Part shown: one piece after another, positions 682-62,142 of the stretch
How positions within the stretch are numbered: the first letter of the stretch is position 1
How the letters are laid out: every line of letters begins with the position of its first letter
Origin: Candidatus Anderseniibacteriota bacterium
GTDB lineage: Bacteria > Patescibacteriota > Andersenbacteria > UBA10190
Reading direction: 5' to 3'
Assembly (NCBI GenBank): GCA_016197005.1
Contig: JACPWO010000001.1
Coordinates: forward strand, 5,106 to 69,105
DNA length: 64,000 nt
Translations under genes and position numbers: made by a program
The notes under the pieces: model-generated
Told to the model about the DNA's origin: nothing
Seen by the model: only the letters and a program-made list of their open reading frames with translations
The model's database searches: none

Positions 682-2488
682 GAAGAGAAATACTTACCCC
701 AAGAAGAAAGCCGGGCGAACGATACTGAAAGATGAGACGATGAGTGCCACCTACTTCTACTATCCAACCAACGCGGTTACTAATATTTTGCGCGGGTTGT
801 CCATTTACTTGCCACCCACTGGCGTAATTCGTATTGAGAATTACTGGTGTATCGGGTGGAGTTTCAACTTTCAATACAACTCGGTTTGGTGACCATTCTT
901 CAATAGTGTATGTTCCGCGTTCGTGCGTTTGTTCATTCTCTATATAGGCTGTGCCGTTGCCAATTTCGTCAGTTACCACTCGGACCGCTGGGGAAGGAGT
1001 AAGTACCGAGCAGTAATTCATACTGCCATATCCTTGGAGAATATCGGTGTACGCTCGAGAGTAGTCAACCTCATTATGACGTGTTTTGTAGGCAAAAGGT
1101 GAGTGTTGTAGTGGTTCCTTGGCGGGTGGTAAGGATTCCAGTGACCGCGGAAGAACAAATGCCTGCTCAGATAAGGGGTAGGACATAGTAAAGAGATCGA
1201 GAGCGATAAGAGCGAGGATTACGTAACTTATACCGCGCGTAGCAGCTTTCTTTTTGTTTTTTATTAAACTCTCCATACCAAATCCGGACAACAAAGAGAT
1301 TGGAATAACAGCGAATAGAACAACACGAGAAATATTCGATCGGGGGAACCACGAAGCTTGATCGAAGAAAGGTTTCAGGGTAGGCCCCGTCGAAGATAGG
1401 AGAATAGCCAGTATGGTACTCATACCAAGTCCAACGACAACGCGCCGCCGCCAATTAAAAATCACTCCGATACACGCCAAAACGGCGGCTACGGGCCCTA
1501 TATATGCCCCATATTCATGCCAACCACTCCCTTGATTTGGAATAACGTTCTCGACTCCATGTAGGTATCGTCCCAAGAAAATTTTGTGGAGTGATCCCAA
1601 CGTAGACGTAGAGCCGGCATACATTTGATCCTGAAACTGAGATAGCCATAGCAACACAGGGATAAGTTTTACCGCTGCCAGTCCTAACGCCCACAAACCA
1701 CTGTGAATATTAACCACCCAAGCATCTTTCTTTCGAGAAGTGAAAAATGGAAGGATAAGAAAAGCGAGAGCAGTGTACATCAGTAGGTAGATGCCGCCTT
1801 GGAAGAAAGTAAAGGCTAAGAAAATACCAGTAATAATATTCCACTTCGTAGATTTTTCGCGGTACGCAGCTAGCCAAGCCCAAAAGATCCACGGAATAAA
1901 CATGGCTGCAAATACATTGGGATGTCCTTCAACAATTTCCAGTAAGGTTACAGAACCAAATGTTGCTACCATACTTGCAACAAGTGAAGAGTACACAGAC
2001 AGGCCCAGACGCTTTCCTAAAAGGAGCATACCAACTCCGCCGACAGCGGTTGCTAGCCAAATAGCGAGTGGAAAGCCGTTTTCAATACCAAAGGCGAGCT
2101 CCACTAAGAAGGTAGGAGTGAAGAAACGAAATTCTGGATCGGCTAGGGCAGCAGTTCCTCCACAGATATATGGATTCCAGTGAGGAAGTTGGTGGTAGGT
2201 AAGAATTGTCTCGCGGTAAGAATGATGGAGAGAAAAATAATAATCCCAATCAGAGATTCCAAGCTGCCCGGTTGAAAACCAAAACCCGAGGGTGGCGAGC
2301 GGGGTAATAGCAACAATAATAAGAGCAGCTAACTGCCAACGCAGACGAGGAAAGAAACGGATAAGCAATATGCCGAGTAGAAATATGCCAGCAACAACCA
2401 CTCCTTGGTGCACGCCAAAGAGGGTATCCGGTGTTATCCTGAGCCACTCAAGGACGAACGTAGATACGGGATTCATAGAGGACGTCAT
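611..2488 (-). CDS. large polytopic membrane protein, family unassigned; N-terminal region is a paralog of 42271..44283
   Basis: 625 aa ORF with more than 10 hydrophobic helices and a roughly 150 aa hydrophilic C-terminal domain. It shares a Trp/Pro-rich N-terminal region with the 42271 protein. No catalytic motif recognised. Confidence 0.55.
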   Translation of the reverse strand: MTSSMNPVSTFVLEWLRITPDTLFGVHQGVVVAGIFLLGILLIRFFPRLRWQLAALIIVAITPLATLGFWFSTGQLGISDWDYYFSLHHSYRETILTYHQLPHWNPYICGGTAALADPEFRFFTPTFLVELAFGIENGFPLAIWLATAVGGVGMLLLGKRLGLSVYSSLVASMVATFGSVTLLEIVEGHPNVFAAMFIPWIFWAWLAAYREKSTKWNIITGIFLAFTFFQGGIYLLMYTALAFLILPFFTSRKKDAWVVNIHSGLWALGLAAVKLIPVLLWLSQFQDQMYAGSTSTLGSLHKIFLGRYLHGVENVIPNQGSGWHEYGAYIGPVAAVLACIGVIFNWRRRVVVGLGMSTILAILLSSTGPTLKPFFDQASWFPRSNISRVVLFAVIPISLLSGFGMESLIKNKKKAATRGISYVILALIALDLFTMSYPLSEQAFVLPRSLESLPPAKEPLQHSPFAYKTRHNEVDYSRAYTDILQGYGSMNYCSVLTPSPAVRVVTDEIGNGTAYIENEQTHERGTYTIEEWSPNRVVLKVETPPDTPVILNTNYASGWQVNGQPAQNISNRVGWIVEVGGTHRLIFQYRSPGFLLGVSISLLTVGVGTLSLLRARGRQTQPHQP

Positions 2489-4712
2489 CTTTTCCTTGAG
2501 AACGATATTTCGCTACTTCCTTCCATGGCTGAGGCATAGAAGTAATATACTCGCTTGAGCTCACATCAATAATAGTATGTATGTCATTGGTCAAGGGCTG
2601 TCCCTCTGCCAAGATCGTCACCTGCGATATAGGAAGATAAAAGGCAGCCGGTAAATTAAGTTCTTCAATAGCATAGCGCGGTTCAAAAGACCGAGCTGTC
2701 CGGGCCGCCCGGTATAAAACAGAATCTAGAGCTGCCGTGAGATTATGGGCATCAATATATTGATCGACTTTATTGAAAATAAGCAGACTACCAATGACAA
2801 AGGGTATGAGAGCGACGACCGGGAAAAAACGAGCGGCCGTAAAACGAACACTGCGAGGCATAAGCGCTGCTGCGATCATCAAGCATATTAAGGGATATGA
2901 CTGTTGGTAGTGCTTCGCAAACGGATGGAACCATATGGCGATAAGTATCTGTGAGGCAAGAACGATCGTCACTAAAATGCCACGCCAGCCGGCGCTTGCG
3001 AGAAAAGGCAGTGGTGCTGCAATTGTGATGCCAGTAATAAGAATGGGAATAAGTTTATTCATTTTTAGCGGATCACTGATTGTCAGCCAGATTGCCCATC
3101 CAATTACAGCAACCGCAATTACGCCAGCAACTATTTGTACTGATTGAGGAAATGACTCTTTTCGCTTCATCCAATAAATCCACCAGGCTAGCACTCCAAA
3201 AAGAGCTAGAGAAACGTACCCGCTGTCATACGGCAAAATGAGTTCTTCTTGTGTCCACGATCGCTTCCACATCGAAGAAATAATTGACCATGTTGAAATG
3301 GAAGCGTCAGAAAAGGCTTGGAATGAGTCAACGATTTGTAGTCGCTCTCCCTCAAAATAGGGTGTGTATACAGGGTTACCATAACGAACTGCATTGTTCA
3401 CAAAAAATGGAAGCACCAGGAAAAAAGCTGGTAAAAACATCCGCAGCAACACAAAAGAAGTTTTTTTAAGTGTGGAATGCTTGGCGCGTATCCCAATAAT
3501 TTCTTGACTGATCGTAGCGGCTAACAAAATAGCAGCTAGCAAAAAGCCTTCCTGTCTTGTCATAGCGGCATATCCGATCGTTATTCCAAAAACAATTTGC
3601 TGCCAGTGATGCCGACGATTGAAAAATAGAACCAGACTTAAAAGAAGGAGACAAGCATATACGGTATACGGCTCAGAACGTAGCGATGTTTCGAAGAAAT
3701 CTCGCTGGAATGCAAGTAAAGCCGCTGCGGTAAAAGCGGCCGGCCATGGGAGTAAAAGACTTCGGGCGAGAAGGTAGACGAGGATAATTGAGAAGGCAGC
3801 AGCGACACTGGAAATACTACGCATGTACGTGTGAGCATCGATCGTGGGATTTATTACTGCTGGAATGAGAAGAATTGGATATCCCGGTAGTCGTTTATCG
3901 AATTCAAACGGATTTTTGAATTTAGTTAGACGAGCAGCAATAGAAAGATAGTTGTAGGGATCTCCTCCGGACACGCCTCCCAAATTCTCCTCGATATCAA
4001 GCCGAAGATTTAACGTAAGTGCCGCTAAACAAATAACTATTCCCAATCCCACTGCTTTCTGCTTTTGTGCTGACAGATGCCGCCAACCAAATCTTCCAAC
4101 GAGGAGAGTAAAAATAATAAGGAGAGCTAACAGCGACCCACTTACTATAAGTTCTTCTTGGTACTTTTCTGCCAAAGTAGCAATTGATTGCCAGAGTGGT
4201 ACTTCCTCTTTAAGACTAACTGCGAACGTTCCTGCCTGTGGTCGCCCCTTCTCGTAGCGAATTAATGATGAAGGGGTGTAATTAGGATCATACCGCCAGC
4301 CAATGGCAGATGCTTGGGTAGCGTCAGGAACGGATACGTCAATACGAAGCTTTCCTGCTTCTGCTGCAATAGGTGGATCTAGGAGAATGGTAGCAAAGCG
4401 ATCGTCGCGAATTTCTGAAGAGGGAATAATGCCAGTAAAAATAGATTGGTCATCTGACAGACGAACTATTTCAATATGAATTGGAGATGGAGACCCCGTA
4501 TTACGAATGTCACTCATGATGAGCCCTAATCCCAATAGTGGTTTTTCAAAAGAAATTTCCTGCGACAAGGTACGATCGCCGAACAGAAGCCGGTGAGTGT
4601 TATATGAGTCGACGCCCTCGCTTATAATTGTTTGCCGTGAGGCTGGTAAGAAAGCTCCGATAATAGCAACGACAACGAGTAGAGTTATACTTAACACGAC
4701 ACGGGTGTTCAT
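2448..4712 (-). CDS. GT-C-fold membrane glycosyltransferase with N-terminal anchored extracytoplasmic domain
   Basis: 754 aa. It has an N-terminal signal-anchor helix, a roughly 200 aa soluble domain, then a multi-TM PMT_2/ArnT-like region (…AAMTRQEGFLLAAILLAA…). The architecture is shared with 12806, 15557 and 37755. Confidence 0.6.
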   Translation of the reverse strand: MNTRVVLSITLLVVVAIIGAFLPASRQTIISEGVDSYNTHRLLFGDRTLSQEISFEKPLLGLGLIMSDIRNTGSPSPIHIEIVRLSDDQSIFTGIIPSSEIRDDRFATILLDPPIAAEAGKLRIDVSVPDATQASAIGWRYDPNYTPSSLIRYEKGRPQAGTFAVSLKEEVPLWQSIATLAEKYQEELIVSGSLLALLIIFTLLVGRFGWRHLSAQKQKAVGLGIVICLAALTLNLRLDIEENLGGVSGGDPYNYLSIAARLTKFKNPFEFDKRLPGYPILLIPAVINPTIDAHTYMRSISSVAAAFSIILVYLLARSLLLPWPAAFTAAALLAFQRDFFETSLRSEPYTVYACLLLLSLVLFFNRRHHWQQIVFGITIGYAAMTRQEGFLLAAILLAATISQEIIGIRAKHSTLKKTSFVLLRMFLPAFFLVLPFFVNNAVRYGNPVYTPYFEGERLQIVDSFQAFSDASISTWSIISSMWKRSWTQEELILPYDSGYVSLALFGVLAWWIYWMKRKESFPQSVQIVAGVIAVAVIGWAIWLTISDPLKMNKLIPILITGITIAAPLPFLASAGWRGILVTIVLASQILIAIWFHPFAKHYQQSYPLICLMIAAALMPRSVRFTAARFFPVVALIPFVIGSLLIFNKVDQYIDAHNLTAALDSVLYRAARTARSFEPRYAIEELNLPAAFYLPISQVTILAEGQPLTNDIHTIIDVSSSEYITSMPQPWKEVAKYRSQGKDDVLYESRIYVRP

Positions 4713-4733
4713 AATTTGATAGTATAGCGGTAT

Positions 4734-6164
4734 ATGAGGACTGATAAAGCAACGATTTTTATACTTTTTACCCTCTTTTGCTTAGCTAATGTAGCATTTC
4801 TTAACCGTGTCCCAGGGTTACTTGGAGATGAAGCTTCGGAAGGTGAAAATGTGTATGAACTTCTTACGAATGATTCGATTACGGTAGTAGGCGAACGATC
4901 ATATATCGGCCCAGCGATTGATTACGTACGTGTGCCTTTTGCCGCTGTTTTTGGATATACAACTCTGGCACTGCGAATACCAATGTTCATATTCTCGGTC
5001 GCCACTTTTTGGTTAGCCTGGAGTGTCCTTAAAAAACAATTTGGGGAAACAACTGCACTGTATGCACTCACATTACTTACGTTTTCTCCTGTCTATGTAC
5101 TCTATCAACGTCTGGGTTGGGCAATTACACTTTTCCCGTTCTTTACATTTCTTATCATTTGGTTGGCACAGCAATCATGGCGAACAAAGTGGTTATGGGT
5201 TGGGGTAGCAGCCGGGTTAGGATTGGCTAATCATATTTTATTTTTACCGATACTGGTTGGATTTATTAGCGGATATATTACTTTTGCTGTGGTGCGGCGC
5301 CTGTTGTTATCCACTAACCGCTCAACTAGTTCCCAGTCATTGTGGCATACGGTTTTACTGGGCGTTATTACCGCATGCGTTGGCTTTTGGGCTGGATTTG
5401 GCATGCAATTTGCTGTGTTGCAATTGCATACGGACGATCAAGGTAGCATCAAGGCTACCACCCAGCTTTTCTCGGAACGGGTGAGCGATTTTATTAGTGC
5501 CGCTCCGCTGTACATCTCCGGCTCATCGTATGTTGCTCAATATATGGGACAGGAATTCACACCAAGTATCACATTACTAGTTGTAATCGTCTTATTAGTT
5601 CTTGTCGGTGTAGCAATTATTTTGAATTGGAGAAATCCGTACTTGTGGGCGTATGTTTTGGGGCTGGTGCTGCATCTCTCTGCCATGCTGTACATGATCG
5701 ATCGATTTAATTTAAGGTACTTCACAACATTTGCCCTAGGCATTTGGCTTCTGGCCGGTATGGGTTTGGGGAGCATATTACGCCGGGTACCGAAAATGCA
5801 GATCGGCGTACCACCTTTAGCGGTCCTGTTGCTTCTTTGGCTCGCAGGAGGTGTTCTTATCCCATTTCTTCACACCGGAGGAGCAGTCGCTGAGTTTTCG
5901 CTTGGTAATCGCACGAATGATGCTGCGGCGTTTGTAGACACCCGACCGCTCATTAGTTGTTTACGAGGGAAAGGTCCACTTTACTCGGAAAATATTCACA
6001 TCTGGAACCGATTACAATATCTAAGTCACTACTATGATGATTTAGTAGTAGTGCCTGAAGATCGAAAGAGAGAGGCAACAGTACAGGTGGCGTATATGGA
6101 TCCGAAAATATCGTATCGAGGAGGAATTTGTCCTGATCTGCAGCATTTCCAGGTGGGAAATTGA
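4734..6164 (+). CDS. GT-C-fold (PMT_2/ArnT-like) membrane glycosyltransferase
   Basis: 476 aa, multi-pass membrane protein with an acidic first loop (LLGDEASEGEN) and a PMT_2-like TM arrangement. The start is only 21 bp from the divergent upstream gene. Confidence 0.55.
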   Translation: MRTDKATIFILFTLFCLANVAFLNRVPGLLGDEASEGENVYELLTNDSITVVGERSYIGPAIDYVRVPFAAVFGYTTLALRIPMFIFSVATFWLAWSVLKKQFGETTALYALTLLTFSPVYVLYQRLGWAITLFPFFTFLIIWLAQQSWRTKWLWVGVAAGLGLANHILFLPILVGFISGYITFAVVRRLLLSTNRSTSSQSLWHTVLLGVITACVGFWAGFGMQFAVLQLHTDDQGSIKATTQLFSERVSDFISAAPLYISGSSYVAQYMGQEFTPSITLLVVIVLLVLVGVAIILNWRNPYLWAYVLGLVLHLSAMLYMIDRFNLRYFTTFALGIWLLAGMGLGSILRRVPKMQIGVPPLAVLLLLWLAGGVLIPFLHTGGAVAEFSLGNRTNDAAAFVDTRPLISCLRGKGPLYSENIHIWNRLQYLSHYYDDLVVVPEDRKREATVQVAYMDPKISYRGGICPDLQHFQVGN

Positions 6165-6618
6165 CAAAAAAGAATAAAGGATTATTGTGTTTGTAGCCGC
6201 GGCGAGTTCAGGCCCGCATTTGCCGCAGGTAAAGGAGTGGTTCTAGCTCGTGCTGGAATCACTCCCGAATCCAAGCCGTTCTTTTCAGGGCTAGAACGGA
6301 TAAGATAATATGGTGTATCGCTGTGGAGGGTACTAGGAATTTGATGTAATTGTTGCATCAAACCATCTACAGCAACCTCGATGGAGAAAAGGCTATGAAG
6401 AGCCTCAGCTGTTTTAAGAAAAATTGAAAACACCTCGGCGCCGGCCATCTTCCTCCACCTCGCCAAGGAGACACCATGAACCGTATTCGCGGTCCCCCGT
6501 GAGTACCCGCTGTCGCGTTGATCCGTTACCACAAGGTGTCGAGTGGACTTTGTCCCTCAGGTGATTCAGCACGCTAGGTCGTTGCTGTCACAATGAAAAT
6601 ACTCGTCACTTGTGCGCC

Positions 6619-6653
6619 GCCCCGCTGCTACATGCACGGGGCTTTCTTTTTTT
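6619..6653 (+). terminator. rho-independent terminator (GCCCCG, 12 nt loop, CGGGGC, then TTTCTTTTTTT)
   Basis: Read directly: a 6 bp GC stem at 6619-6624 / 6637-6642 followed by a U-tract. It lies at the 3' end of the roughly 450 nt non-coding stretch 6165..6677. Confidence 0.5.
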
Positions 6654-6677
6654 ATACAAAGCAGTAGTGTAGTGGGC

Positions 6678-8624
6678 ATGTTCAAGGACTGGAGGACCTA
6701 TAAGATAGATATCCTTTTTGTTTTACTTATTTTTTTCGTTGCCCTTATTCCACGAATCGTCGATCTAGGTATATTTTTAACTGCTGACGAAAAAAACTGG
6801 ATTGGCCGATCCTATGAGTTTATTAAAGCGTTTAAAGATGTTCGGCTGAACGATATGTTGCAGACTACCCATCCTGGGGTACCGGCGTTGTGGCTTATGG
6901 GAATAGCCGTTACGGCAAAAATGTTTTTATCCCATATTCCGTTTTCGTCTGACACACTTCCTCAATTTATCTGGGCCACTCAGTTTCCCATCGCTTTCGT
7001 CAATGCACTCGCGGTGCCTACTATATACATTTTCCTTCGCAAACTAACTTCTGGTTACAAGATCCCTATTATTGCATCTCTCTTTATTGCTTTGGACCCA
7101 TTTATTATCGGCTATTCGCGGGTCGCTCACGTCGATGCACTTGTCATGAGCTTCCTATCTTTAGCAGCCCTCGCGACCATTATCTATGTTAGTAAGAACT
7201 TTGATCGACGCTGGCTGCTTGTTTCTGCCGTATTGTCCGGTTTGGCAATACTGACCAAGGCCCCAGCGATATATATAATTCCATTTTTCTGGTTAGCGGT
7301 GCTTTGGAAAAATGGCCTAAAACACTTTTCTTGGGATGGTCTCTCCGGGCGAGTACGGGATTTTGTCCTCTGGTCTCTTTTGATTGCAGTCATGATCGCA
7401 GTTATCTGGCCGGTATTTATTACGGTCGTAAACCCAAAGGGAAATGCAAATATATTACGACGTGACCTAAGTGTGGCTATAGCGACACCACATCACATGT
7501 CTGAAAACTATTCAGTGAAGGCTTGGCATTACCCAGCCGCTTTGCTAGTACGAACGAACCCCGTAACACTTGTGTTTGCTCTAGTGGCGGTCCTTTGGGT
7601 TGTGGTTGCAAGCATTCGCCGGCAGTCATCTCCGACCACCTATTGGTTACTCATAGCGTATGTTTTCTTCTTCGTTCTAATGATGACGCTTGGGGCCAAG
7701 AAGGGGGATCGGTATATACTGCCGGTCTTCCCGGCTATTGATGTATTAGCAGCAATTGGTCTCGTGTCCTTGGTAAAATTTACTAAATCCAGCTCTTTTA
7801 CAAAGTTGCTTCCAGCAGCTGCTGTTTTATATCTCGCCTTTACGGTATATACATATCACCCATACGCATTGGCGTATGCGAACCCCTTCTTTCCAGATAA
7901 TTTGAGCCAGGAGTTGGGGTGGGGTGAGGGACTGGAACAAGTAGCAAACTGGTTCAACGAGAACGATCCCAAAGCTCACGTCGCCTCTTGGTATGACCAA
8001 GAGCTTGGTGCATATACGACTGCGCGCGTTGTTTCGATTGGAGCGCACGAGCAACCACATATTAAATACGTCGTGCTATACAAAAACATGTTTGGTAGAG
8101 CGGCTGATCATCCAGCAAATGATTATATTGACGAATATTACAAAAAACGAGAGCCAGTATTTGTCGCGCACGTTCTTGGGAAGGAGTTTGCCTGGGTTTA
8201 TAAGAAGCAGGTGTATGAAACAATAACCGGCGAACTTTTACCGGGACAAAAAGTTAAACAAGTACTTGCTGCTGATACCGAGCCAATCGTTGGTCTTGAT
8301 ATCCAGATGGCTACATACAACGGGCGGGCAACAAGCGGGCAGGTAATAATAACATTAGAAGATTCCACCGAGAATCTGATCCATACCTGGACTATTCCCG
8401 TCTCCGACATTGCAGATGACAGCTGGCGCCGTCTCTTACTGCCTACACGTGCAGAAAAAGGAGAAATGCACGTTAGTATAACTGCCGAAGGGACTACTCG
8501 AGGGAATGCTCCGACTATTCGACGTACAACCGAGGGAATAGTAGCGGTTCGACTTTTATACGGTATACCCAGCAACCCCTACCACTCCGAGCAAACCAAG
8601 TTACTCCCTTCAAAGCTTAAATAG
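6678..8624 (+). CDS. GT-C-fold glycosyltransferase (GT39/83-like DE motif) with conserved C-terminal domain family
   Basis: The ORF-track start at 6612 would read through the terminator hairpin, so the start is moved to ATG 6678 (MFKDWRTY…). It has the loop-1 motif TADEKNW, many TM helices, and a C-terminal GWGEGLEQ / YVVLYKNMFGRAADHP block shared with four paralogs. Confidence 0.6.
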   Translation: MFKDWRTYKIDILFVLLIFFVALIPRIVDLGIFLTADEKNWIGRSYEFIKAFKDVRLNDMLQTTHPGVPALWLMGIAVTAKMFLSHIPFSSDTLPQFIWATQFPIAFVNALAVPTIYIFLRKLTSGYKIPIIASLFIALDPFIIGYSRVAHVDALVMSFLSLAALATIIYVSKNFDRRWLLVSAVLSGLAILTKAPAIYIIPFFWLAVLWKNGLKHFSWDGLSGRVRDFVLWSLLIAVMIAVIWPVFITVVNPKGNANILRRDLSVAIATPHHMSENYSVKAWHYPAALLVRTNPVTLVFALVAVLWVVVASIRRQSSPTTYWLLIAYVFFFVLMMTLGAKKGDRYILPVFPAIDVLAAIGLVSLVKFTKSSSFTKLLPAAAVLYLAFTVYTYHPYALAYANPFFPDNLSQELGWGEGLEQVANWFNENDPKAHVASWYDQELGAYTTARVVSIGAHEQPHIKYVVLYKNMFGRAADHPANDYIDEYYKKREPVFVAHVLGKEFAWVYKKQVYETITGELLPGQKVKQVLAADTEPIVGLDIQMATYNGRATSGQVIITLEDSTENLIHTWTIPVSDIADDSWRRLLLPTRAEKGEMHVSITAEGTTRGNAPTIRRTTEGIVAVRLLYGIPSNPYHSEQTKLLPSKLK

Positions 8625-8674: not shown

Positions 8675-8703
8675 TTGACATATTTTCTAATATCATGTAA
8701 GAT
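8675..8703 (+). promoter_or_regulatory. sigma70-type promoter, TTGACA-17-TAAGAT
   Basis: The -35 box TTGACA is at 8675-8680, followed by a 17 nt spacer and the -10 box TAAGAT at 8698-8703. An AAGGT Shine-Dalgarno sequence sits at 8724-8728, ahead of the ATGs at 8732 and 8741. Confidence 0.5.
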
Positions 8704-8731
8704 GTCGAGTTAAATTCTAATTTTAAGGTTT

Positions 8732-9973
8732 ATGTTAACTATGACAAATATCTTACAGCTACGCCTGCGCGGTATCCGGTACATCTTACCGGTTGCTTTG
8801 ATCGTCGTGGGTACAGCATTATTCACCTCAAACCTTGAATCAGCTACCGGCGCTGGTAGTAACGGTATTACCGTCATCAACCCTCGCCTTTCCGCTGGTT
8901 ACAGTAACCTGCCTCGCACTCTGCGAGATCAGCCAGTTATTGAGGTATTCGTTAATTCACCAATTCATAACGCTCCAGCTGGAACATACGACAAGAACGC
9001 CGTTCCTTTCAGTTATAGCGTGAACTTCTTAGTCTGTAACAACATCCTCTTCAATGCTCGAGTTTTGTCTCGCTTTGATGCAATGGGTGGACACCACAGC
9101 AACTATGAAGGTACTGCACAGAGTAACTGGATTAAGCTTACTGATGATTCTCATGGCGAGAACCACTGTGGCGGATCTCTGTACTGTGTTGCTAGTCGAA
9201 CTGGTAGCCATACCCTTAACTTCTCAAGCCTGAAAGCTGGAGAAACAAAAGCTACCTTGCAGGTAGTTGGTAAGTGGCTCCGAAAACAACAGCCAAGCGA
9301 TTCCTTTGATCGGAATGATGCTTCCTTCACGGACAACAAAGCTACTGCTGTGAACATTTGGCTTAACTTTGGTGGATCAACTCCAACTCCTACCCCAACA
9401 CCTACGTCTACGCCAACAACTACTCCAACTCCTACCCCAACACCTACACCGACTCCAGCGCCAGGTGAACCGGGAATCCGAGTAACTAAGACTGATAACC
9501 GAGATATCACTCGTCCAGGACATACCTTGACGTATGAAATCAAAGTAGAAAATGTCGGTGAAGTTGATATGGGAGACGTTGAAATCAAAGATACCGTTCC
9601 TTCTTACCTTAAGATCACATCTGTCAGTGACAGTGGTCACATCTCTGGTCAGGTTGTTACCTGGAATGGAATTGATCTTGACACTGATGAATCTAAAACC
9701 TTCTACGTTAATGTAACGGTAAAGGATTCTGCCCCAAACGGCACCAACCTTCTTAACACCGTAGAAGCTTGTTCAGATGATCAGGACGTCTGCGATGAAG
9801 ATGACGATACAACTATTGTGGAAAAACCTCCGGTTGTAAAAGGAGTAACCAAAACAGTTGTTATCAAAGAAGTCCCAGTAACCGCTAAAACCGGTGGTGC
9901 AGCCTCTCTTGCTTTAACCAGCCTTGCTGGTGGAGCCAGTGGCCTCATTTACCTCAAGCGTCGTTACTTCTAA
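8732..9973 (+). CDS. secreted/cell-surface protein: signal peptide, unknown N-domain, Thr/Pro-rich linker, DUF11 repeat domain, sortase-like C-terminal signal
   Basis: The signal-like N-terminus is LRGIRYILPVALIVVGTALF. A 28 aa TP-rich linker is followed by a DUF11-type block (TLTYEIKVENVGEVDMGDVEIKDTVPSY…VTWNGIDL…). The C-terminus has a motif (VPVTAKTG), a hydrophobic helix and a KRRYF tail. The gene has its own promoter and terminator. The alternative start is ATG 8741. Confidence 0.7.
   Translation: MLTMTNILQLRLRGIRYILPVALIVVGTALFTSNLESATGAGSNGITVINPRLSAGYSNLPRTLRDQPVIEVFVNSPIHNAPAGTYDKNAVPFSYSVNFLVCNNILFNARVLSRFDAMGGHHSNYEGTAQSNWIKLTDDSHGENHCGGSLYCVASRTGSHTLNFSSLKAGETKATLQVVGKWLRKQQPSDSFDRNDASFTDNKATAVNIWLNFGGSTPTPTPTPTSTPTTTPTPTPTPTPTPAPGEPGIRVTKTDNRDITRPGHTLTYEIKVENVGEVDMGDVEIKDTVPSYLKITSVSDSGHISGQVVTWNGIDLDTDESKTFYVNVTVKDSAPNGTNLLNTVEACSDDQDVCDEDDDTTIVEKPPVVKGVTKTVVIKEVPVTAKTGGAASLALTSLAGGASGLIYLKRRYF
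9380..9464 (+). repeat. low-complexity ACN-CCN tandem repeat encoding (TP)n, with an internal 42 bp direct repeat
   Basis: The sequence ccaactcctaccccaacacctac occurs at 9384 and again at 9426. It encodes STPTPTPTPTSTPTTTPTPTPTPTPTPAP. Confidence 0.6.
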
Positions 9974-10000
9974 CAAATACTCTTAAATCAAACAAAACAG

Positions 10001-10034
10001 CCAACCCCGCTCTAACGCGGGGTTGGTTTTATTA
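10001..10034. terminator. bidirectional rho-independent terminator between convergent genes
   Basis: CCAACCCCGC, TCTAAC loop, GCGGGGTTGG, then TTTTATTAT on the + strand. On the - strand the same hairpin is followed by CTGTTTTGTTTG. The hairpin overlaps the last four codons and the stop of the - strand gene 10012..12816. Confidence 0.6.
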
Positions 10035-12816
10035 TAGGGAGGAAAAAAAGTAAACTTCCTATCAGTACTCCCGATAGGGTTAATATGCGCGCCCACATTA
10101 CTGCGGGTGATTTATATTTAAAGGAAATGATATGAGTACCAGTGGGTATCTCCGCAGTTTTAAAGATGGAATTACCAACAAGTTGCACTGATTCTTTTCC
10201 ATCAATATAGGTATGCCACTGAGGGGTAGTAGAATCCGTAAGTACCACATAGGCAGGTTGATCTGACGTCACCTCAATGTCCACCTGCGTGGGTTCGTAC
10301 CGTTTAATAACCGCGTTAGCGTTAACAGGTTGGGAAGAAGTTAAGATCTTTTCAGGTGGCTTCGGACCAGATAAATACACAACATTCCTTGGATCGAAGT
10401 CGGTGGCACTCATGGCGTGTCGTGTTTCATCAGCGGCAGATTTCCAGATACCAGAGGGAACGACAAACGCATGAGGATAGGCATTAGGATTGCTATATAA
10501 ACGAGCTGTTTTTGTACCAATGGGCACTTCTGCGACCACTTTATATCCGGCTTCTACCATCGTGTCGCTGTTAACTGATGATAAAAGTTGGCCCAAGTGA
10601 GTAATCCCAGCCATGTCCAAGAGTTTACGGCTACGTTCAATGGCGTGGATATTATCACCGTCAAGCGGCTCCTGATCATTCGCAAAAAAGAATTCAATAA
10701 ATTGTCGATACGGACGTATGGAAAGAGCACCAATCCAGCGGGCGCTGGAAGCGCCGGCAATGACATTAGTATGCCGCTCCAGAAGAGCAGCTTCAACGTC
10801 ATATGATGTTATAAGGTCTGGCTCAATGAGAGTTTGGACGGTTTTTTGGGAACGTTCCCACTCAGCTTCGGTTGGGTCAGAAGTGCGAACAAAATAGGCT
10901 TGATGTTCAACGTCAGGTTGTTCAATAAAAGGAACGGTAACATTGGAGTTAAAATCAGCGGATAGTGAAATCCAGGTCGTTGCTTCCGGTGAAATAATAC
11001 CTTCGTCAAAACAAATATGCTGTCGTGCACCCTGACCAACTCGGTGCAAGGATAAAGAAATTACTTGTTGGGGTGGCTGTCTTGGATCCCTGTACGCCCC
11101 TACATTTATCTCCCCTTCCTGACCGGCGAGGGCAGCTTCGAGTGGAAGATAGATGCAGTGAAAATCTTCAGTTGTTGGCGGGATCGGTTGGTAAACAGAG
11201 AATGTCGGCGAAATATGATCAGTATAACGAACAGCGGCAACATCTTCCGGTTTTTTTTGTAGGAGCAGCGGTCGGACATATAACCGGGGTGGCACCAGGT
11301 TTTGATCAGCAGCACGTACTGCTTCTTCAAGCGGAGAGACCGCAAAGGCGGTAGTGGCAGGTGTGGTTGGATTATAATTCCAGGCATAACTGAGCAATGT
11401 AACAACTGTCAGAATTGATAGTCCGTACATTTGCACTCGCCTTCCTCCTTTTCCGTGGACGACAAGTGCAATGACTAGGAAAATAATACTGAACGCAACC
11501 AAAAGAATATGTGGATCATTATGCTCCCATAGATATCGCAACTCGTGTTGTTCCACTCCTTCTTCCCATACCCTCATTAAGAAGGGACTTAAAAGAATAA
11601 GAGGAAAAGCAAGGGCGCTAATACCAAACCAGATTTTTTTTCTCCTACTTCCATGGAGAAATGCCTCGATGCCCGCGGTTGCTAACAGCGCGATGCCAAT
11701 GTCAAAGAAAAATACAAAGCGAGAGGCAATTGCAAACGAAGAGAAAATGAGCTTCTCAACTAAGTAGTGATAAAGTGGTGAGTACTTTCCTAAAGCTAAT
11801 AGAATTGAGAGTGCGACGAGAAGTCCACCCGCTGCATGTTCTGCTCTCCAGCGACGACGTTGGGTGAGCGCAGCGCCAGCTAATGCGAGTGGAATAATTC
11901 CGACGAATGCAGCTAGTTCCTGAAAGCCCTTTGCTCCCCAGTGGGTACTGTGATTTCCAAAGAAGTACGGGAGTATAAGTGTGACGGCGTGAACTGGTGG
12001 GTAGCTAAACTCCACTAACTCTTGTCGGGAGAGCGCCTCAGCTCGTTCGGTCTCGGGAATGAATTCCCAGAGAGGGAGTATGGCGAACGAAGATATACAA
12101 AGAGCTAGTAGTCCGGCTATAACGGTGTGTCCCATAACCTTACCAAAGTGCCGCCAGCTTGTTGCGTACTCAGCAAGGAAGCAGGCTCCAATAATGGCCG
12201 CGGCAATAAATGTGAGAAGAACAACTTGCGGCTGCGCTGACAATACAATTGCGGTTGCAATTGCTGCCAATGTCAGGTTGGAACGGAGAACGGGATGCTC
12301 AACGACACGGAGAGCGGCTAAGACTAGCCATGGCAACAGCATTGTCCCTGTATAAAAGTTAACGTGATTCAAATGCCCAATAGAAAATCCACTGAAGACA
12401 AAGACAATAGCTCCGACTGCGCTTGGGATTTCAGAAAAATGACGACGGCGCAGAAGAGCATAGAATCCGAGTAAACCGATCAAAAAGTAACTGGCAATCG
12501 AGATTTGGAGGAGCGTAAGTGGATGAAAACCGATCAGTCGTAGCAGAACATGAAGCGGGGTAAAGAAACCGAGCTGTCCCCACGCTAGGAGGGGATGTCC
12601 AAACCCAAATTCGTTGCTCCAAAGTGGGAGCTGCCAATTGTGTTGAAATTCCGCGTAGGCTTTTTCCAGTGGATAATAAATAATTTTAAGGTCGTCGAGA
12701 AAGAAGATATTACCAGCAAGAAATATGCGACCAAAAAAAATCGCCCACGTTAAAATAATAAAACTCAGCCCCACCCGATTTTGGTGAATGTACGTGAGTA
12801 ATCGGCTATTGTTCAT
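10012..12816 (-). CDS. YfhO-like GT-C-fold polytopic membrane protein with large C-terminal extracytoplasmic domain
   Basis: 934 aa. It has about 13 N-terminal TM helices with conserved His/Trp-rich loops, followed by a roughly 400 aa soluble C-terminal region and a final TM helix. The YfhO assignment is by architecture only. Confidence 0.5.
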   Translation of the reverse strand: MNNSRLLTYIHQNRVGLSFIILTWAIFFGRIFLAGNIFFLDDLKIIYYPLEKAYAEFQHNWQLPLWSNEFGFGHPLLAWGQLGFFTPLHVLLRLIGFHPLTLLQISIASYFLIGLLGFYALLRRRHFSEIPSAVGAIVFVFSGFSIGHLNHVNFYTGTMLLPWLVLAALRVVEHPVLRSNLTLAAIATAIVLSAQPQVVLLTFIAAAIIGACFLAEYATSWRHFGKVMGHTVIAGLLALCISSFAILPLWEFIPETERAEALSRQELVEFSYPPVHAVTLILPYFFGNHSTHWGAKGFQELAAFVGIIPLALAGAALTQRRRWRAEHAAGGLLVALSILLALGKYSPLYHYLVEKLIFSSFAIASRFVFFFDIGIALLATAGIEAFLHGSRRKKIWFGISALAFPLILLSPFLMRVWEEGVEQHELRYLWEHNDPHILLVAFSIIFLVIALVVHGKGGRRVQMYGLSILTVVTLLSYAWNYNPTTPATTAFAVSPLEEAVRAADQNLVPPRLYVRPLLLQKKPEDVAAVRYTDHISPTFSVYQPIPPTTEDFHCIYLPLEAALAGQEGEINVGAYRDPRQPPQQVISLSLHRVGQGARQHICFDEGIISPEATTWISLSADFNSNVTVPFIEQPDVEHQAYFVRTSDPTEAEWERSQKTVQTLIEPDLITSYDVEAALLERHTNVIAGASSARWIGALSIRPYRQFIEFFFANDQEPLDGDNIHAIERSRKLLDMAGITHLGQLLSSVNSDTMVEAGYKVVAEVPIGTKTARLYSNPNAYPHAFVVPSGIWKSAADETRHAMSATDFDPRNVVYLSGPKPPEKILTSSQPVNANAVIKRYEPTQVDIEVTSDQPAYVVLTDSTTPQWHTYIDGKESVQLVGNSIFKTAEIPTGTHIISFKYKSPAVMWARILTLSGVLIGSLLFFLPIIKPTPR

Positions 12817-15004
12817 ATCCGGGGTAGAATGCGGTCTTACCAGTCATGTCGATAATAATATCATTGGCAGCTACGGAATCAGGTATAGAATCATACCGCT
12901 CTATTGATACTGGGGAAGTGCTTCCTAAGAGACGGAATAAATAAGCTGAGAGTGAAGTAGTTTGATCGGGATGAACACCAATGAGCAAAATACGAGCGTG
13001 CGGATCTACCGGTTGTTGTTGTTGCTTGTATTGGCGAGCTGCTTCTTGGATGTATTCGGCTTGCTCTCGGTAAAAGCGAGTCCGTTCAGGCACCCGTGCT
13101 TGCCATGTACCGTAGATAACTAAGACAAGTAACAGTGTCCCGCCAACCCGTGTCCGATATAGAGCCGGTACCCGCAGTACGAGAAAGCCGACAAGTAACG
13201 CTAATCCGAATACGGATAAGTATATCCAGCGAAAACGCCAATCGTTAGCTAGGAAAAGAACAGGACCGAGAAATGCGAGCCACCATACTCCAGCGAGCAA
13301 GATTCCATGAAAGACTTTTTCATCTTTTCGTAGCCACATAAGCAAGCCGGCGTATAGTAGTAATAAAACGATGCCTGGATAGTAGGGAGATTGAAGCCGA
13401 GATTGATTAAATAGAGTACTAAGAGGTTTTTCCACTACCGAAATTCCTGGAACGTTAATTGGCCACAACCAGTTTTCAGCCGTCCAGTCAGCATACGTAA
13501 GCAGATTTTGTCCGAGCATTGAGGGTGTAAGTCTAGTTGTGTATGTATCATTTGTTGCGGTAACTGGAGGAAGGGTGGGATCACTAAACACAGCTGCGCG
13601 CAAGAACAAAAGCAGACACGCTACTACAACATATGGAGCAGCTGCTACCGCCGCTGACTTTTTAAGTGTCTTCAGTGTTAGAACATCAATTGCAAACGCA
13701 ATGACAGGTAAGATAAGAACATGTTCCTTAGAGAGAAACGCAAGTGCGTACAATACAAGCGAGGCACATAAGTAACGTCCTTGTGCTTTAGAGCGCCACC
13801 AAATGAAACAAAGAAGAGATGCTATGGCAAATAAGCCAGCCAAGATGTCATGGTTTGAGCTCCACCAATACGCAGTACCAATTTTTGAACTATGTGCAAT
13901 CCAAGTAGCCGCCGTCGCTGCAGCAGCAATAGGTGAGCGAAGAATAATAAGAGCCAGTACGAATAGTCCGACGGCAGTGATAGCAATAAGGAGAATATTC
14001 AAAAAGTAAGCAGCTTCTGCTTTCGGCCCGACGCTATGCCAGATAATTGATGAAAACAAGCCGGCACTTACTGGTCGCCAAAAATGAAGATCAAATTGAG
14101 AATATTCGTCAGCTTCCAGATAATCATGCGCCAAAAAAAGTTTCCAGCTATCCGCGCCTTTATACTGTTCGGCCCGCGCAAGCAAAGCGAGATCATCATG
14201 GAAATAGAATAAATGCGTTGCTGGCCAGTAAATACATAGTGTTGCCACGATGAGGCCACCCGCCCACAACGCGAATGCTCGGTGGGAGAGTGTGGTGAGT
14301 CCCTCCAGAGCATCAGGTATCGGCTCGGGAAAACCGTATAATTTGAGAGCAAGGCCCCCTATAACAATAAGCGCCAATGCAGCAAGTAAGTGATGGTGTT
14401 GGGTATCTGTTAACCAACGAACAAGGAGAATAGCAATAGGTGGTCTCTCGTACAAAACAAATCCGATATTACCTTGCTTTTCCTCTCGTTGAGAAAATGT
14501 TTTTCCTTCTAAGTATTTAGATGCATCACTTTCATACCGTATATGAATCGCGTCGGCTTTTGAGACGCTAAGCGTCTCAAGTGTAAAGTCATACGTTTTA
14601 CCACTGGTGCCAGTGATCGGTTCAAAAAGGAAAAAAAGAGTTGGAACATAAGAATCCAGTTGCTGCTGAGCATCGACGTATTGAATATGTGTCTGATCAT
14701 AAAACTGGGCAGCAGGCCCAGATAAACTACGAATAGTCTCATTACTTTCTACTTCCTTTACGGTGAAAATGACTTCAGTTTCTGAAGCAGGAATTTCCGT
14801 ACTTGCTAACCAAAATCTAAAACCATGCAAAGAGTTGGTGGGAGCAACAATACGTTGGGTAAGTGGATTCCCGGCGAATACTTGATGGATGTGTTTGTCA
14901 TCGGGGGTTTGCACTAGGCTAACAGTTCGAAATGGTCGTTTGCCTCCACTAAAGATGAGCCCGACCAATAGGATCGCAAGGAGTATTACTATTTTTTTAT
15001 TCAT
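12806..15004 (-). CDS. GT-C-fold membrane glycosyltransferase with N-terminal anchored extracytoplasmic domain
   Basis: The start is taken at the internal ATG (MNKKIVILLAILLVG…), which is preceded by AAGGA and removes the overlap with the upstream gene. The rest is a roughly 200 aa soluble domain followed by a multi-TM region. Confidence 0.55.
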   Translation of the reverse strand: MNKKIVILLAILLVGLIFSGGKRPFRTVSLVQTPDDKHIHQVFAGNPLTQRIVAPTNSLHGFRFWLASTEIPASETEVIFTVKEVESNETIRSLSGPAAQFYDQTHIQYVDAQQQLDSYVPTLFFLFEPITGTSGKTYDFTLETLSVSKADAIHIRYESDASKYLEGKTFSQREEKQGNIGFVLYERPPIAILLVRWLTDTQHHHLLAALALIVIGGLALKLYGFPEPIPDALEGLTTLSHRAFALWAGGLIVATLCIYWPATHLFYFHDDLALLARAEQYKGADSWKLFLAHDYLEADEYSQFDLHFWRPVSAGLFSSIIWHSVGPKAEAAYFLNILLIAITAVGLFVLALIILRSPIAAAATAATWIAHSSKIGTAYWWSSNHDILAGLFAIASLLCFIWWRSKAQGRYLCASLVLYALAFLSKEHVLILPVIAFAIDVLTLKTLKKSAAVAAAPYVVVACLLLFLRAAVFSDPTLPPVTATNDTYTTRLTPSMLGQNLLTYADWTAENWLWPINVPGISVVEKPLSTLFNQSRLQSPYYPGIVLLLLYAGLLMWLRKDEKVFHGILLAGVWWLAFLGPVLFLANDWRFRWIYLSVFGLALLVGFLVLRVPALYRTRVGGTLLLVLVIYGTWQARVPERTRFYREQAEYIQEAARQYKQQQQPVDPHARILLIGVHPDQTTSLSAYLFRLLGSTSPVSIERYDSIPDSVAANDIIIDMTGKTAFYPGYEQ

Positions 15005-15015
15005 ATCCTTGATAG

Positions 15016-15534
15016 TCAGTTGCGACATTGCGTCTCCGTACCACCACACACGCGATAGAGTGCTTTATCATCCTCATGAAGAATTCGATAATCAAATTTT
15101 CGTGTTTCGTCTTCATCAAAAGCAATCACATCATTTTGAGGAAGTTCCAAGCTTGCTTCGAAGAAATATCCCTTAGCTTCTCCTTTTCGTATGTCTGTAA
15201 CACAGTAACGATAGTACTGTGTATCTGACTCGCGAATATCGTGTGGGGAAACATCAATATATTGGCCCTTTACGATTGGTGATTGTGGTCCAAAAAACCA
15301 GCTGTCAACCGTGCGAGAATCGGTGCAATGAGGCTTTGATTTCGGGGGGGTGGGGTAATACTCGCGGTCGTTGTGATATACCTCTACTGCTTGTTTCAAA
15401 TTGGTTATGTCTTCTACCCGTAAGTGATCGCGTGCCTGGGTACGGGCGTAGAGAAAAGCTGGTATAAGAATAATTAAGGCAATCCCGGCGGCAATCCCGA
15501 TTGCCAATAGTTCCCATTTCAGGTCATGATTCAT
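15016..15534 (-). CDS. pseudopilin-like (GspG/type IV pilin-like N-terminal helix) small secreted protein, paralog of 36125..36631
   Basis: Start placed at Met80 of the long ORF (MNHDLKWELLAIGIAAGIALIIL), by analogy with the paralog. The ARTQARDHLRVEDITNLKQAVEVYHNDREYYPTP block resembles the GspG 'AR-D-L-AL-Y-DNG-YPT' region. SWFFGxQSP, IPHDVRES, YCxTDIR and YRVCGGT blocks are shared with 36125. The exact start is uncertain. Confidence 0.45.
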   Translation of the reverse strand: MNHDLKWELLAIGIAAGIALIILIPAFLYARTQARDHLRVEDITNLKQAVEVYHNDREYYPTPPKSKPHCTDSRTVDSWFFGPQSPIVKGQYIDVSPHDIRESDTQYYRYCVTDIRKGEAKGYFFEASLELPQNDVIAFDEDETRKFDYRILHEDDKALYRVCGGTETQCRN

Positions 15535-15556
15535 ACTATGTATATCCGTGTGAATT

Positions 15557-17971
15557 TTGGTACCAGCTCCAATGGTGCGATGGTATAACATCCAGTATAC
15601 CGGAGGCAAGCTGCTTACTTCTCGGTGGCTATGGGTGTCTGAGTTAGTTCTCGTATTAGGTGTTCTTTGGTTAAGTAGTCCCGTTGATATAATAGAAGAA
15701 GTTCGCTCACCCGGAGACATAAATTCTCGATTTTTGCTGGGAGATACCCGGACAGTTGGGCAAACATTCACAGCTATTCCTAATTTAAGGGTTCTTGAAT
15801 TACCAGTAGAGGTCGAGCCGGGCGCCCAGGGACCAATAATTCTCCATATTCGTCGTGATTATTTTGGCAGGGATCTTCGCAGTAGTGTTATCTTTCGTCC
15901 TGGGTCAGGAACTCAAACATTTGTTTTTGAACCTATCAACGTAGCGCGAGGGGAGACATTAATGTGGGTTTTAGAAAATCCCCATGATCCCGATCGCTCC
16001 ATTTCAGTGTTTCGAGAAATTGACGGCAGTCTTTATTTAGGCGGGGAGGCATATACCAAGGGAAAGGAATTGGCCGGAGATTTTCAATTTAAGATATTCG
16101 GAAGTCGTCCTTTAGTTACTGCGATTCCCTCTATGTTGGCCGGAGCTACAAATGAGTTCATCTTCCTTGATGATGGAGAGCGTCAAGCACTTATTGTTGG
16201 TTTAATCGTAGCGTTAATTGCTTGGCTTTTCGCCCCCAGGATTGTTCAACTTCTGCGGTGGTTTCTATACCGTCCGCGCCTAACACTTGTTTTATTAATG
16301 GTAGTTACGTTTGCGCTCCATATAACGACAGCGAAAACAATACCACTTAATAACGATGAAGGAGCCTATCTACAGGATGCTTTGCAAGCGCAAGAAGGGT
16401 TTGTCCCCGTTAAAGATTTCTTAACAAAGGGTCCGGTGTATGTGTATGTACTCTCAATCTGGACTAATCTTGTTCCATTTGCTGTGCCTTTTTTGCGCCT
16501 CTTAAGCACAGGGGCGTGGATTGCGGGAGTATTGCTTGTTTACCGTCTTTCTCGCGAGCTTGGATTATCGGTGGGGATTGCACTTACGGCGGCGGCCCTC
16601 CTTGCTCTTTCTCCAGCGGCAGTCTTGCTCAGTACGCCACTATTATTGCAATCAATCAGTGCAGTATTGGTTTTAGGCGGCCTTCTTCTTACCATTATGG
16701 GAGCAAAACGAGAAAATGTATGGTTCGTTGTTGTCTCGGCAATTTGTATGGTGGCTGCATATTTAACCCGCGCTAGTAGTATCCCTGCAGCAGTAGTTGG
16801 GCTCGGAATAATCCTATGGTTTTCCGAGCGCAATCGTTTCCGCTTAGCTGCCACGTACACGATAGTCGGATTACTTGTTACCGGATCCTTATTTACTGCT
16901 GCCACCTTGTACATGGGTCTTGAGAAAGCGACGGTCGCGTTCAATATTGAAGCACTCGCTGTATCGCAAGCGCGCGAAATAATAGAGACAACACCGGAAG
17001 AACCAATTGTTCGTTGGTCAATCGAAAGTGCGATGGTGTTGTGGAGTATGTCTCCCTGGTTTATCGCTGGTGTTCTCGCCCTTCCTTGGTTTTTGTTTAA
17101 GTACGTCTCGCGTTGGCAGACAATTCTTCTTCTTGCCCTTTGGCTGCTCCTAGCGTCTCATGTTTGGTTTCACCTTAATGACATGTCGTATTTCGTGGGT
17201 GCCCTTCATAAAGTTGCCCGAGTATTAGTCATTTTCTCGGTTATATTGCCGCTGTTTATAGCAGCGGTGCGTTGGTTACTTGATAAACCAGCACCCGCGT
17301 TGTCGCAGACACAAGCTCGGGTCCTTATTCTTATGCTGGCATGGATATTAATGCTGGGAATGATTTATCGCGTATGGAGCGACTTTCGACCAAATTACCT
17401 ATTAGAATTTTTGCCACCACTAGCACTGATAACTGCTCAATGGGGAAGGAATATCTGGGCAGCTATTACTACTCGTCCTCACCGGAATGCCACGCGCTTT
17501 GCGCTGGGGGCAGTAGTGCTTATTGCGGTTACTGGTGGGTTGGCTGGTTGGCGATTGGGACTACGGTTTCCGCCGAGTGGAACAATGGATCTTGGAGCAC
17601 TTAGCGACATTGTAAATGAAGTAAAAACGTATGTGCCGCCACGCGAGCCTCTCTTTACCGCACAATCAGCCGTCACCGCTTTAGCCCGACGGCCAATGAT
17701 ATTTCAGTATAGTCATTCTGGTTGGTATTTATATGAACGACAGGGACTGGTACCAACGGAACTTTTACAGTTATTTTTCCAAAGTCCTGAATCTATTACT
17801 TCGTATTTAGACAAAACCGTTCAATTCATCTTAGTTGATCGACGAACTCAGCAGGTGTACTTCGATACGTATGAAGAGCGGCAGCGAATTCTAGCTGAAG
17901 ATTTTGAGAGTATCGTTACGGTAAAAAACGGTGATGACACATTTGAACTTTATCGACGAAAGATCAACTAG
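15557..17971 (+). CDS. GT-C-fold membrane glycosyltransferase with N-terminal anchored extracytoplasmic domain
   Basis: 804 aa starting at TTG (or at ATG 15572). It has an N-terminal TM helix, a roughly 180 aa soluble domain (…TRTVGQTFTAIPNLRVLELP…) and more than 12 TM helices. The exact start is uncertain. Confidence 0.55.
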   Translation: MVPAPMVRWYNIQYTGGKLLTSRWLWVSELVLVLGVLWLSSPVDIIEEVRSPGDINSRFLLGDTRTVGQTFTAIPNLRVLELPVEVEPGAQGPIILHIRRDYFGRDLRSSVIFRPGSGTQTFVFEPINVARGETLMWVLENPHDPDRSISVFREIDGSLYLGGEAYTKGKELAGDFQFKIFGSRPLVTAIPSMLAGATNEFIFLDDGERQALIVGLIVALIAWLFAPRIVQLLRWFLYRPRLTLVLLMVVTFALHITTAKTIPLNNDEGAYLQDALQAQEGFVPVKDFLTKGPVYVYVLSIWTNLVPFAVPFLRLLSTGAWIAGVLLVYRLSRELGLSVGIALTAAALLALSPAAVLLSTPLLLQSISAVLVLGGLLLTIMGAKRENVWFVVVSAICMVAAYLTRASSIPAAVVGLGIILWFSERNRFRLAATYTIVGLLVTGSLFTAATLYMGLEKATVAFNIEALAVSQAREIIETTPEEPIVRWSIESAMVLWSMSPWFIAGVLALPWFLFKYVSRWQTILLLALWLLLASHVWFHLNDMSYFVGALHKVARVLVIFSVILPLFIAAVRWLLDKPAPALSQTQARVLILMLAWILMLGMIYRVWSDFRPNYLLEFLPPLALITAQWGRNIWAAITTRPHRNATRFALGAVVLIAVTGGLAGWRLGLRFPPSGTMDLGALSDIVNEVKTYVPPREPLFTAQSAVTALARRPMIFQYSHSGWYLYERQGLVPTELLQLFFQSPESITSYLDKTVQFILVDRRTQQVYFDTYEERQRILAEDFESIVTVKNGDDTFELYRRKIN

Positions 17972-40043: not shown

Positions 40044-40048
40044 ACGGT

Positions 40049-62124: not shown

Positions 62125-62142
62125 AGGCTTACTGTATTTCCT

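Follow-up and report, generated by a model that had tools for sequence, protein, structure and literature searches.

We examined a gene at positions 8732..9973 (plus strand, coordinates including the stop codon) of a 64,000-nucleotide stretch of contig JACPWO010000001.1 (assembly GCA_016197005.1, Candidatus Anderseniibacteriota bacterium), referred to here as the window. The encoded protein of 413 amino acids (aa) is quite likely a small secreted surface protein of an Andersenbacteria-like bacterium of the Candidate Phyla Radiation (CPR), which a sortase would fix to the cell wall by means of the variant signal VPVTAKTG. It has five parts: a Sec signal peptide, an immunoglobulin (Ig)-like N-terminal domain (N-domain), a Thr/Pro linker, one DUF11 (CLIPPER) domain, and a C-terminal tripartite signal. 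The view that the protein is a sortase substrate is well supported because five columns of the motif are invariant and because an intact, divergent sortase is present in the lineage, near a homolog and near an ortholog of the protein.

The motif VPVTAKTG (aa 381-388; 9872..9895, plus strand) was the most conserved part of the family. Among 27 full-length sequences, whose mean column identity was 20%, the sole invariant columns were V381, P382, A385, T387, and G388, and the same five columns were invariant in 36 C-terminal tails. A short spacer separates the DUF11 domain from the motif, which is followed by the predicted hydrophobic segment GAASLALTSLAGGASGLIYL and the basic tail KRRYF (9896..9970, plus strand). 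The segment consists of 20 moderately hydrophobic residues with a mean Kyte-Doolittle value of 1.3. The tripartite layout of motif, hydrophobic segment, and basic tail, which occupies aa 381-413 here, was found in all homologs and in 36 of 36 tails. It was shared by 26 database homologs, all from CPR metagenomes or metagenome-assembled genomes, several of which are named Candidatus Andersenbacteria. In addition, the motif was borne by at least five unrelated N-terminal architectures, among them those of proteins that have no CLIPPER domain (P0009, P0011, P0020, P0023, and P0033). It also recurred within assemblies, at three loci in JBBDOX01 and on P0001, P0011, and P0010 in GCA_034680565.1. 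The original prediction had called the C-terminal signal sortase-like and had suggested that the same motif be sought in other proteins; its conservation and its presence on unrelated architectures, in several copies per assembly, agree well with that proposal.

Other searches for the motif were less productive. The pattern scan of genome contigs gave 58 matches, 6 of which were confirmed; the raw count was not used because approximately 20 matches are expected by chance, according to a rough estimate. A 45-aa profile of the sorting signal retrieved only 3 short fragments when compared with proteins and was uninformative. The scan of metagenome contigs for close orthologs retrieved nothing nearer than distant CLIPPER proteins; these lacked the motif and were not accompanied by a sortase. 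A search for the motif strings in the literature library returned no relevant match, and VPVTAxTG is apparently an undescribed, non-canonical sorting signal. Since the eight residues ahead of the helix are the most conserved part of the protein, the comparison supports the assignment of the tail as a sorting signal and not as a plain membrane anchor. Secreted proteins encoded beside homologs (locus L003, 5140-6465; locus L017, 11461-12765) have a hydrophobic helix and a long Lys/Arg tail without VPVTAKTG. Therefore, plain anchors coexist with motif-bearing tails in the same loci.

A sortase that could act on this signal was found in the lineage. At locus L014, a PF04203 sortase gene (L014:6470-7213; Pfam E = 1.6e-18) is convergent to the gene for P0020 at a distance of 70 bp, and P0020 has both the N-domain and the motif tail. 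The His (ISAHS), Cys (LSLMACWP), and Arg (ERMLVHAEL) of the L014 sortase aligned with the catalytic residues of solved sortases and were invariant among its homologs. There were 260 such homologs, with 48-77% identity for those listed; some are on contigs of up to 850 kb, and the name 'class E sortase [Candidatus Andersenbacteria bacterium]' is carried by many. In locus L017 (GCA_016178385.1), a distance of 2.2 kb separates the sortase gene from that of the window protein's closest ortholog, which has 460 aa and shows 64% identity overall and approximately 71% outside the linker. Next to this ortholog comes another motif protein, 3.7 kb from the sortase. Thus, the enzyme whose search had been suggested by the original prediction did not appear in the window, but a sortase family occurs in the same lineage and adjoins motif proteins in two of the four sortase loci examined. 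A candidate motif-related peptide for the sortase is KEVPVTAKTGGA.

The sortase genes have a recurrent setting. Three further sortase loci (L016, L017, and L018, around position 10001) share a conserved housekeeping neighbourhood comprising ribosomal L10-L12, YceG, a ManC-like nucleotidyltransferase, a CAP-domain membrane protein, and a 58-aa open reading frame (ORF). This conserved ORF (MSELLVVASKVRAYLKE...) is directly upstream of the Andersenbacteria sortase. Beside the L014 sortase there is a penicillin-binding protein (PBP) gene for peptidoglycan synthesis, which indicates that the lineage makes peptidoglycan. A cyclodipeptide synthase gene (PF16715; L018 12408-13088, minus strand) is located beside a methyltransferase gene on an Andersenbacteria contig, 2.4 kb from the sortase.

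Several observations weigh against a sortase substrate. First, no sortase was detected in the 64-kb window by a TLxTC regular expression or by tblastn with the L014 sortase, and neither search found a copy in the other loci to which it was applied; the regular expression is unable to detect the real enzyme because the active site reads LSLMACWP. Second, the adjacency of sortase and motif protein is limited to the aforementioned two of four sortase loci, and no sortase was present within 10 kb of most homolog loci. Third, the motif is not LPXTG, and neither PF00746 (Gram_pos_anchor) nor TIGR01167 gave an anchor match at E <= 1 in the Pfam and NCBIfam scans. Fourth, the sortase scored 49.1 bits with the class E model (NF033747) against a cut-off of 160, and in a PDB profile search its distances to class A, C, and D structures were much the same. 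Fifth, the motif allows a second reading, VPVT|A, that is similar to LPxTA. Finally, we know of no experiment on any CPR sortase substrate.

The window without a sortase and the lack of a match to curated sorting-signal models would be expected if the tail were a mere membrane anchor, or the target of a non-sortase enzyme such as an exosortase or rhombosortase, and its likeness to a sortase signal coincidental. Tripartite tails are also used by other sorting systems. We nevertheless regard this explanation as very improbable. A plain anchor leaves the invariant octet ahead of the helix unexplained in a family that is otherwise 20% identical. Furthermore, the motif ends in T-G like sortase signals, the sortase co-occurs in the lineage and is adjacent in two loci, and a different sorting enzyme was seen in none of the 18 related loci that were examined.

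Assuming that a sortase processes the protein, we considered which class it resembles and which bond it would cleave. LAxTG is the signal of class E sortases, whose beta3/beta4 loop contains a Tyr that has been proposed as the reader of the Ala at P3 (PMC5148588). When the motif is read as T-A-K-T|G, it has Ala at P3 and T-G at P1/P1', as is the hallmark of class E. The Andersenbacteria sortases have an invariant Tyr in GAALYPNG, which aligned with the S3 residue of B. anthracis SrtA. By the reasoning of PMC5148588 together with this alignment, the Tyr is a candidate equivalent of SrtE1 Tyr229; SrtE1 itself was not among the PDB matches. Class E was the best-scoring class, closely followed by class C with 38.9 bits and class D with 34.1 bits. 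Given the low class E score and the equal distance to other classes, the specificity of class E is not transferable to the Andersenbacteria sortase, and its membership of class E is not established. The scissile bond is likewise ambiguous because the VPVT|A reading also fits. Since both halves of the motif are invariant, the sortase probably reads an extended signal of 8 residues.

The remaining parts of the protein are consistent with an exported surface protein. The predicted Sec-type signal peptide (8732..8860, plus strand) has a basic n-region and a hydrophobic core, YILPVALIVVGTALFTS, of 17 aa (mean Kyte-Doolittle value, 2.0). Cleavage is predicted directly ahead of NGITV (approximately aa 43/44), where the residues are small. 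This call is a heuristic reading of the sequence. An A-x-A followed by NGI was kept at the same place in homologs, and the AlphaFold2 (AF2) model has a helix at 5-32. The N-domain (aa ~44-213; 8861..9370, plus strand) is an Ig-like beta-sandwich of an uncurated family, with the invariant features FVN.P.H, Cys102/146/152, GG, W, and TLQ. This module was also found at an internal position (~aa 450-680) in P0160-P0203, giant surface proteins of CPR bacteria that reach 3503 aa and additionally carry PKD, CLIPPER, or SpaA_2 domains. The Thr/Pro linker (aa 215-245, 31 aa; 9374..9466, plus strand) contains 16-17 Thr or Ser residues and has a low AF2 confidence (predicted local distance difference test, pLDDT). 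A PDB search with the single sequence returned only low-complexity TP matches.

The CLIPPER domain (DUF11, PF01345) is CnaA-like and spans 9467..9826 (plus strand; Pfam aa 249-360, E = 2.5e-12). It scored 47.6 bits against a gathering cut-off of 24.6, was also matched by TIGR01451, and was modelled with an AF2 pLDDT of approximately 97. Pfam now uses the name CLIPPER for DUF11, and a 2025 study showed a CnaA-like fold with an intramolecular Lys-Asn isopeptide bond that makes the domain resistant to heat and proteases (PMC12617251), a characterisation that the original prediction did not mention. Across 22 aligned family members, K253 and N342 were invariant and D287 was nearly invariant. The family profile matched the crystal structure 9IFR (E = 8.5e-5), in which K715 and N806 align with the Lys and Asn. 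We therefore predict an intramolecular isopeptide bond between Lys253 and Asn342, with Asp287 as the putative catalytic residue. Of the features named in the original prediction, the Thr/Pro repeat linker and the DUF11 domain were recovered, and the signal peptide, which appears to be genuine from its n-region, its core, and the conserved A-x-A/NGI, was recovered as well. The last strand and loop of the domain contain an extra pair, Cys347/Cys354 (EACSDDQDVCDED, 9770-9793). Only the window protein and the L017 ortholog have this pair, which might be joined in a lineage-specific disulfide. The acidic stretch S.D.D..DE..D.T around this pair was kept throughout the whole family.

Two Ig-like domains, one of which would carry a CnaA-like isopeptide bond, are also what a pilin subunit might have, and BcpA was among the Foldseek matches. 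Homologs are frequently encoded as tandem gene pairs (L003, L004, L005, L010, and L017), so that the protein could be polymerised by a sortase with its tandem paralogs into a covalent pilus of the Gram-positive type. We consider such a role very unlikely. On reading the sequence, with no formal search aimed at it, we saw no YPKN-type pilin motif. Each locus had one sortase type in a housekeeping neighbourhood, and no class C sortase was seen. Moreover, the Foldseek matches were generic tandem Ig folds with template modelling (TM) scores of 0.2-0.34.

For the favoured explanation, wall anchoring through VPVTAKTG, we propose the following course of events. The protein would be exported by Sec, and the signal peptide would be removed just before NGITV. 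The C-terminal hydrophobic segment and the basic tail would then retain the protein in the membrane, where the lineage sortase would recognise V-P-V-T-A-K-T-G. The enzyme would most likely cut after Thr387 (xAxT|G, like class E LAxTG) and transfer the protein to a peptidoglycan precursor. The mature stalk on the wall would consist of the spacer, the CLIPPER domain locked by the Lys253-Asn342 isopeptide bond, and the flexible Thr/Pro linker. At its distal end, the stalk would present the Ig-like N-domain, the probable role of which is binding to a ligand or to the surface of a host.

We next considered the transcription of the gene. The ATG at 8741 (Met4) is probably the true start, as the alignment with the ortholog starts at Met4. 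A gap of 107 bp separates the gene from the upstream gene 6612..8624 for a PMT_2-type glycosyltransferase of the GT-C fold, and a sigma-70-like promoter candidate, TTGACA-17-TAAGAT (8675..8703, plus strand), lies in this gap. It matches 10/12 consensus positions. There were 13 sites of equal quality (10/12) across the window when both strands were counted, and in its first 20 kb promoter-like sites were no commoner than in shuffles (27 vs. 32.4). A 10/12 promoter match was thus dropped as stand-alone evidence, such matches not being enriched over shuffles. TTGACA-17-TAAGAT is, in turn, the window's only such site approximately 30-40 nt ahead of a start codon. The original prediction held that this gene alone in the window has a near-consensus promoter: the site exists and its placement is unique, but its 10/12 match is shared with other sites. 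The high expression that was also proposed is an inference. Apart from this site, a perfect TTGACA -35 box occurs at just one intergenic position, in TTGACA-16-TATTGT at 6161-6188 (plus strand); it lies in the 447-bp gap before the GT-C gene 6612..8624 and 424 nt upstream of the listed GTG start of that gene.

Downstream of the gene, a bidirectional intrinsic terminator hairpin (9999..10028, both strands) has a 12-bp G+C-rich stem and U-rich tails on both strands. Its folding energy is -23.4 kcal/mol, with z = -5.1 on the plus strand and -4.6 on the minus strand, and neither strand's value was matched by any of 200 shuffles. The hairpin overlaps the final codons of the convergent YfhO-family gene 10012..12816 and serves as a terminator common to both genes. 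Similarly, the L017 ortholog has a TTGACA box approximately 60 nt ahead of its ATG and its own hairpin terminator after the stop codon (-19.1 kcal/mol). With a well-placed promoter-like site and a strong hairpin of its own, we accept that the gene is a stand-alone transcription unit, apparently monocistronic and insulated from its neighbours, and the bidirectional terminator is as originally described. Therefore, the gene would not be co-transcribed with the GT-C genes.

The gene is situated in an exceptionally dense island of glycan biosynthesis, in which GT-C genes are interleaved with GT2, GT4, and GT9 genes, DegT aminotransferases, and S-adenosylmethionine (SAM) methyltransferases. As the original prediction had noted, it lies between GT-C genes: the upstream PMT_2 protein has an ADE near aa 57, and the downstream gene encodes the YfhO protein. 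Among the products of the window, at least 17 are polytopic membrane proteins (9-13 predicted helices), and at least 11 of these match PMT_2, PMT, or YfhO. The GT-C paralogs have diverged strongly, and their Pfam scores lie close to the cut-off. An NCBIfam scan of the GT-C proteins gave no specific name, and no curated model assigned an acceptor. Stretches of the island include 611-8624, 10012-19461, 21706-23061, 34614-36128, 37755-41581, 42271-44283, and 57185-63966. A gene of the GT9 heptosyltransferase family (49488-50582, minus strand) and an FrhB/FdhB-like gene (25539-26933, minus strand) are inside the glycan cluster; the latter is of the F420 hydrogenase beta subunit type, and the host is presumably a monoderm CPR bacterium. 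The long ORFs 15016-15771 (minus strand) and 15557-17971 (plus strand) overlap by approximately 215 bp, and a miscalled start is probable for at least one of the two.

Given this setting, the sortase substrate might also be a dedicated target of the surrounding PMT_2/PMT/YfhO-type GT-C enzymes, its linker being O-glycosylated on the outer face of the membrane, as the original prediction had proposed. There is a precedent in secreted proteins whose Ser/Thr-rich linkers between domains are heavily mannosylated by bacterial GT-39 enzymes (PMC11727336). The linker, with its 16-17 Thr or Ser residues, provides a disordered Ser/Thr-rich candidate acceptor region (aa 215-245) in a predicted Sec-exported protein, and the gene sits between a PMT_2 protein with the DE motif and a YfhO protein. 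However, we consider this addition unlikely, and related genomes gave it no support. No GT-C gene was present at the L017 ortholog locus or in the eight other homolog neighbourhoods examined, that is, the GT-C setting was absent from 9/9. The L017 ortholog locus contains a sortase, a nuclease, and other surface proteins, and shares only this gene with the window; two of the eight other neighbourhoods share an SMC-S16-KH-TrmD-DUF212 context. The constancy of the TP region in relatives, which the original prediction had made a point of, was partial. A Thr/Pro linker was present in 28/28 homologs regardless of context, so that such linkers are generic in the family, and its length varied from 14 to approximately 100 aa (31 aa here and 74 aa in the L017 ortholog, the closest). 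This variation in length is the behaviour of a generic spacer. In addition, the gene appears to have its own promoter and terminator, outside any transcript of the GT-C genes, and the GT-C proteins are named by no NCBIfam model. YfhO-type enzymes are known from teichoic-acid glycosylation, which also counts against the linker as their target.

Wall anchoring through VPVTAKTG has implications beyond this gene. CPR bacteria, or Patescibacteria, are thought to live attached to other cells, and to our knowledge CPR surface proteins are almost entirely uncharacterised. In Candidatus Andersenbacteria, the signal VPVTAxTG appears to be paired with a divergent sortase clade; the kind of system is already known, and the variant of the signal would be new. 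With a sequence rule consisting of VP[VI][TS]AxTG, a helix, and a basic tail, the wall-anchored proteins of an entire lineage within the CPR could be listed and candidate adhesins picked out. In addition, the motif would widen the known range of sortase specificity, which is useful for sortase-based protein ligation. Glycosylation of the linker, if true, would provide the first acceptor for many orphan GT-C paralogs of CPR genomes, a prospect that is only hypothetical at present. A broader proposal combines both ideas: VPVTAxTG would be a lineage-wide extended signal with its own clade of Andersenbacteria sortases, would define a wall proteome of these episymbiont-like bacteria that includes the giant N-domain proteins, and the substrate described here, in the GT-C island, would be O-glycosylated on its Thr/Pro linker. 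We find this combination distinctly unlikely; if it held, the protein would be the first substrate of protein glycosylation that can be identified in the CPR.

The system can be compared with four known ones. The class E substrates of Actinobacteria (LAxTG; Streptomyces chaplins ChpA-C with SrtE1/SrtE2) likewise have a tripartite signal with Ala at P3 and T-G at P1/P1'. There too, a housekeeping-type sortase is not necessarily encoded beside its substrates; the name 'class E' given by NCBI is a further likeness, and the invariant Tyr at the putative S3-subsite position may be another. Unlike those substrates, the signal described here has Thr or Ser instead of Leu at P4, and V-P-V/I is also conserved upstream, which makes a motif of 8 residues. 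The Andersenbacteria sortase differs as well, with 49 bits against the cut-off of 160, MACWP where other sortases have TLxTC, and a CPR host. The CLIPPER fibrillar adhesins (PMC12617251; 9IFR) share with this protein a stalk domain with the Lys/Asp/Asn triad, a signal peptide, a distal non-stalk domain, and a C-terminal sorting signal. However, they have long tandem arrays, whereas a single CLIPPER copy is present in the 413 aa here, the Thr/Pro linker gives much of the spacer, and the N-domain is in no curated adhesion family.

The LPXTG proteins of Firmicutes that are of the MSCRAMM type (microbial surface components recognizing adhesive matrix molecules) and are substrates of class A sortases have the same order of parts: a Sec signal, an Ig-like N-domain, a stalk or spacer, a sorting signal, a hydrophobic segment, and a basic tail. 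They differ in the motif, which is not LPXTG here and has no match to Gram_pos_anchor or TIGR01167, and in belonging to different domain families. Finally, the O-mannosylated linker proteins of Actinobacteria, which are GT-39 Pmt targets such as the Cellulomonas GH6 cellulases, resemble this protein in having a Ser/Thr/Pro interdomain linker, Sec export, and PMT-like GT-C genes. In contrast to them, modification of the linker is only hypothetical here, the GT-C paralogs are very divergent, and the gene association is not conserved.

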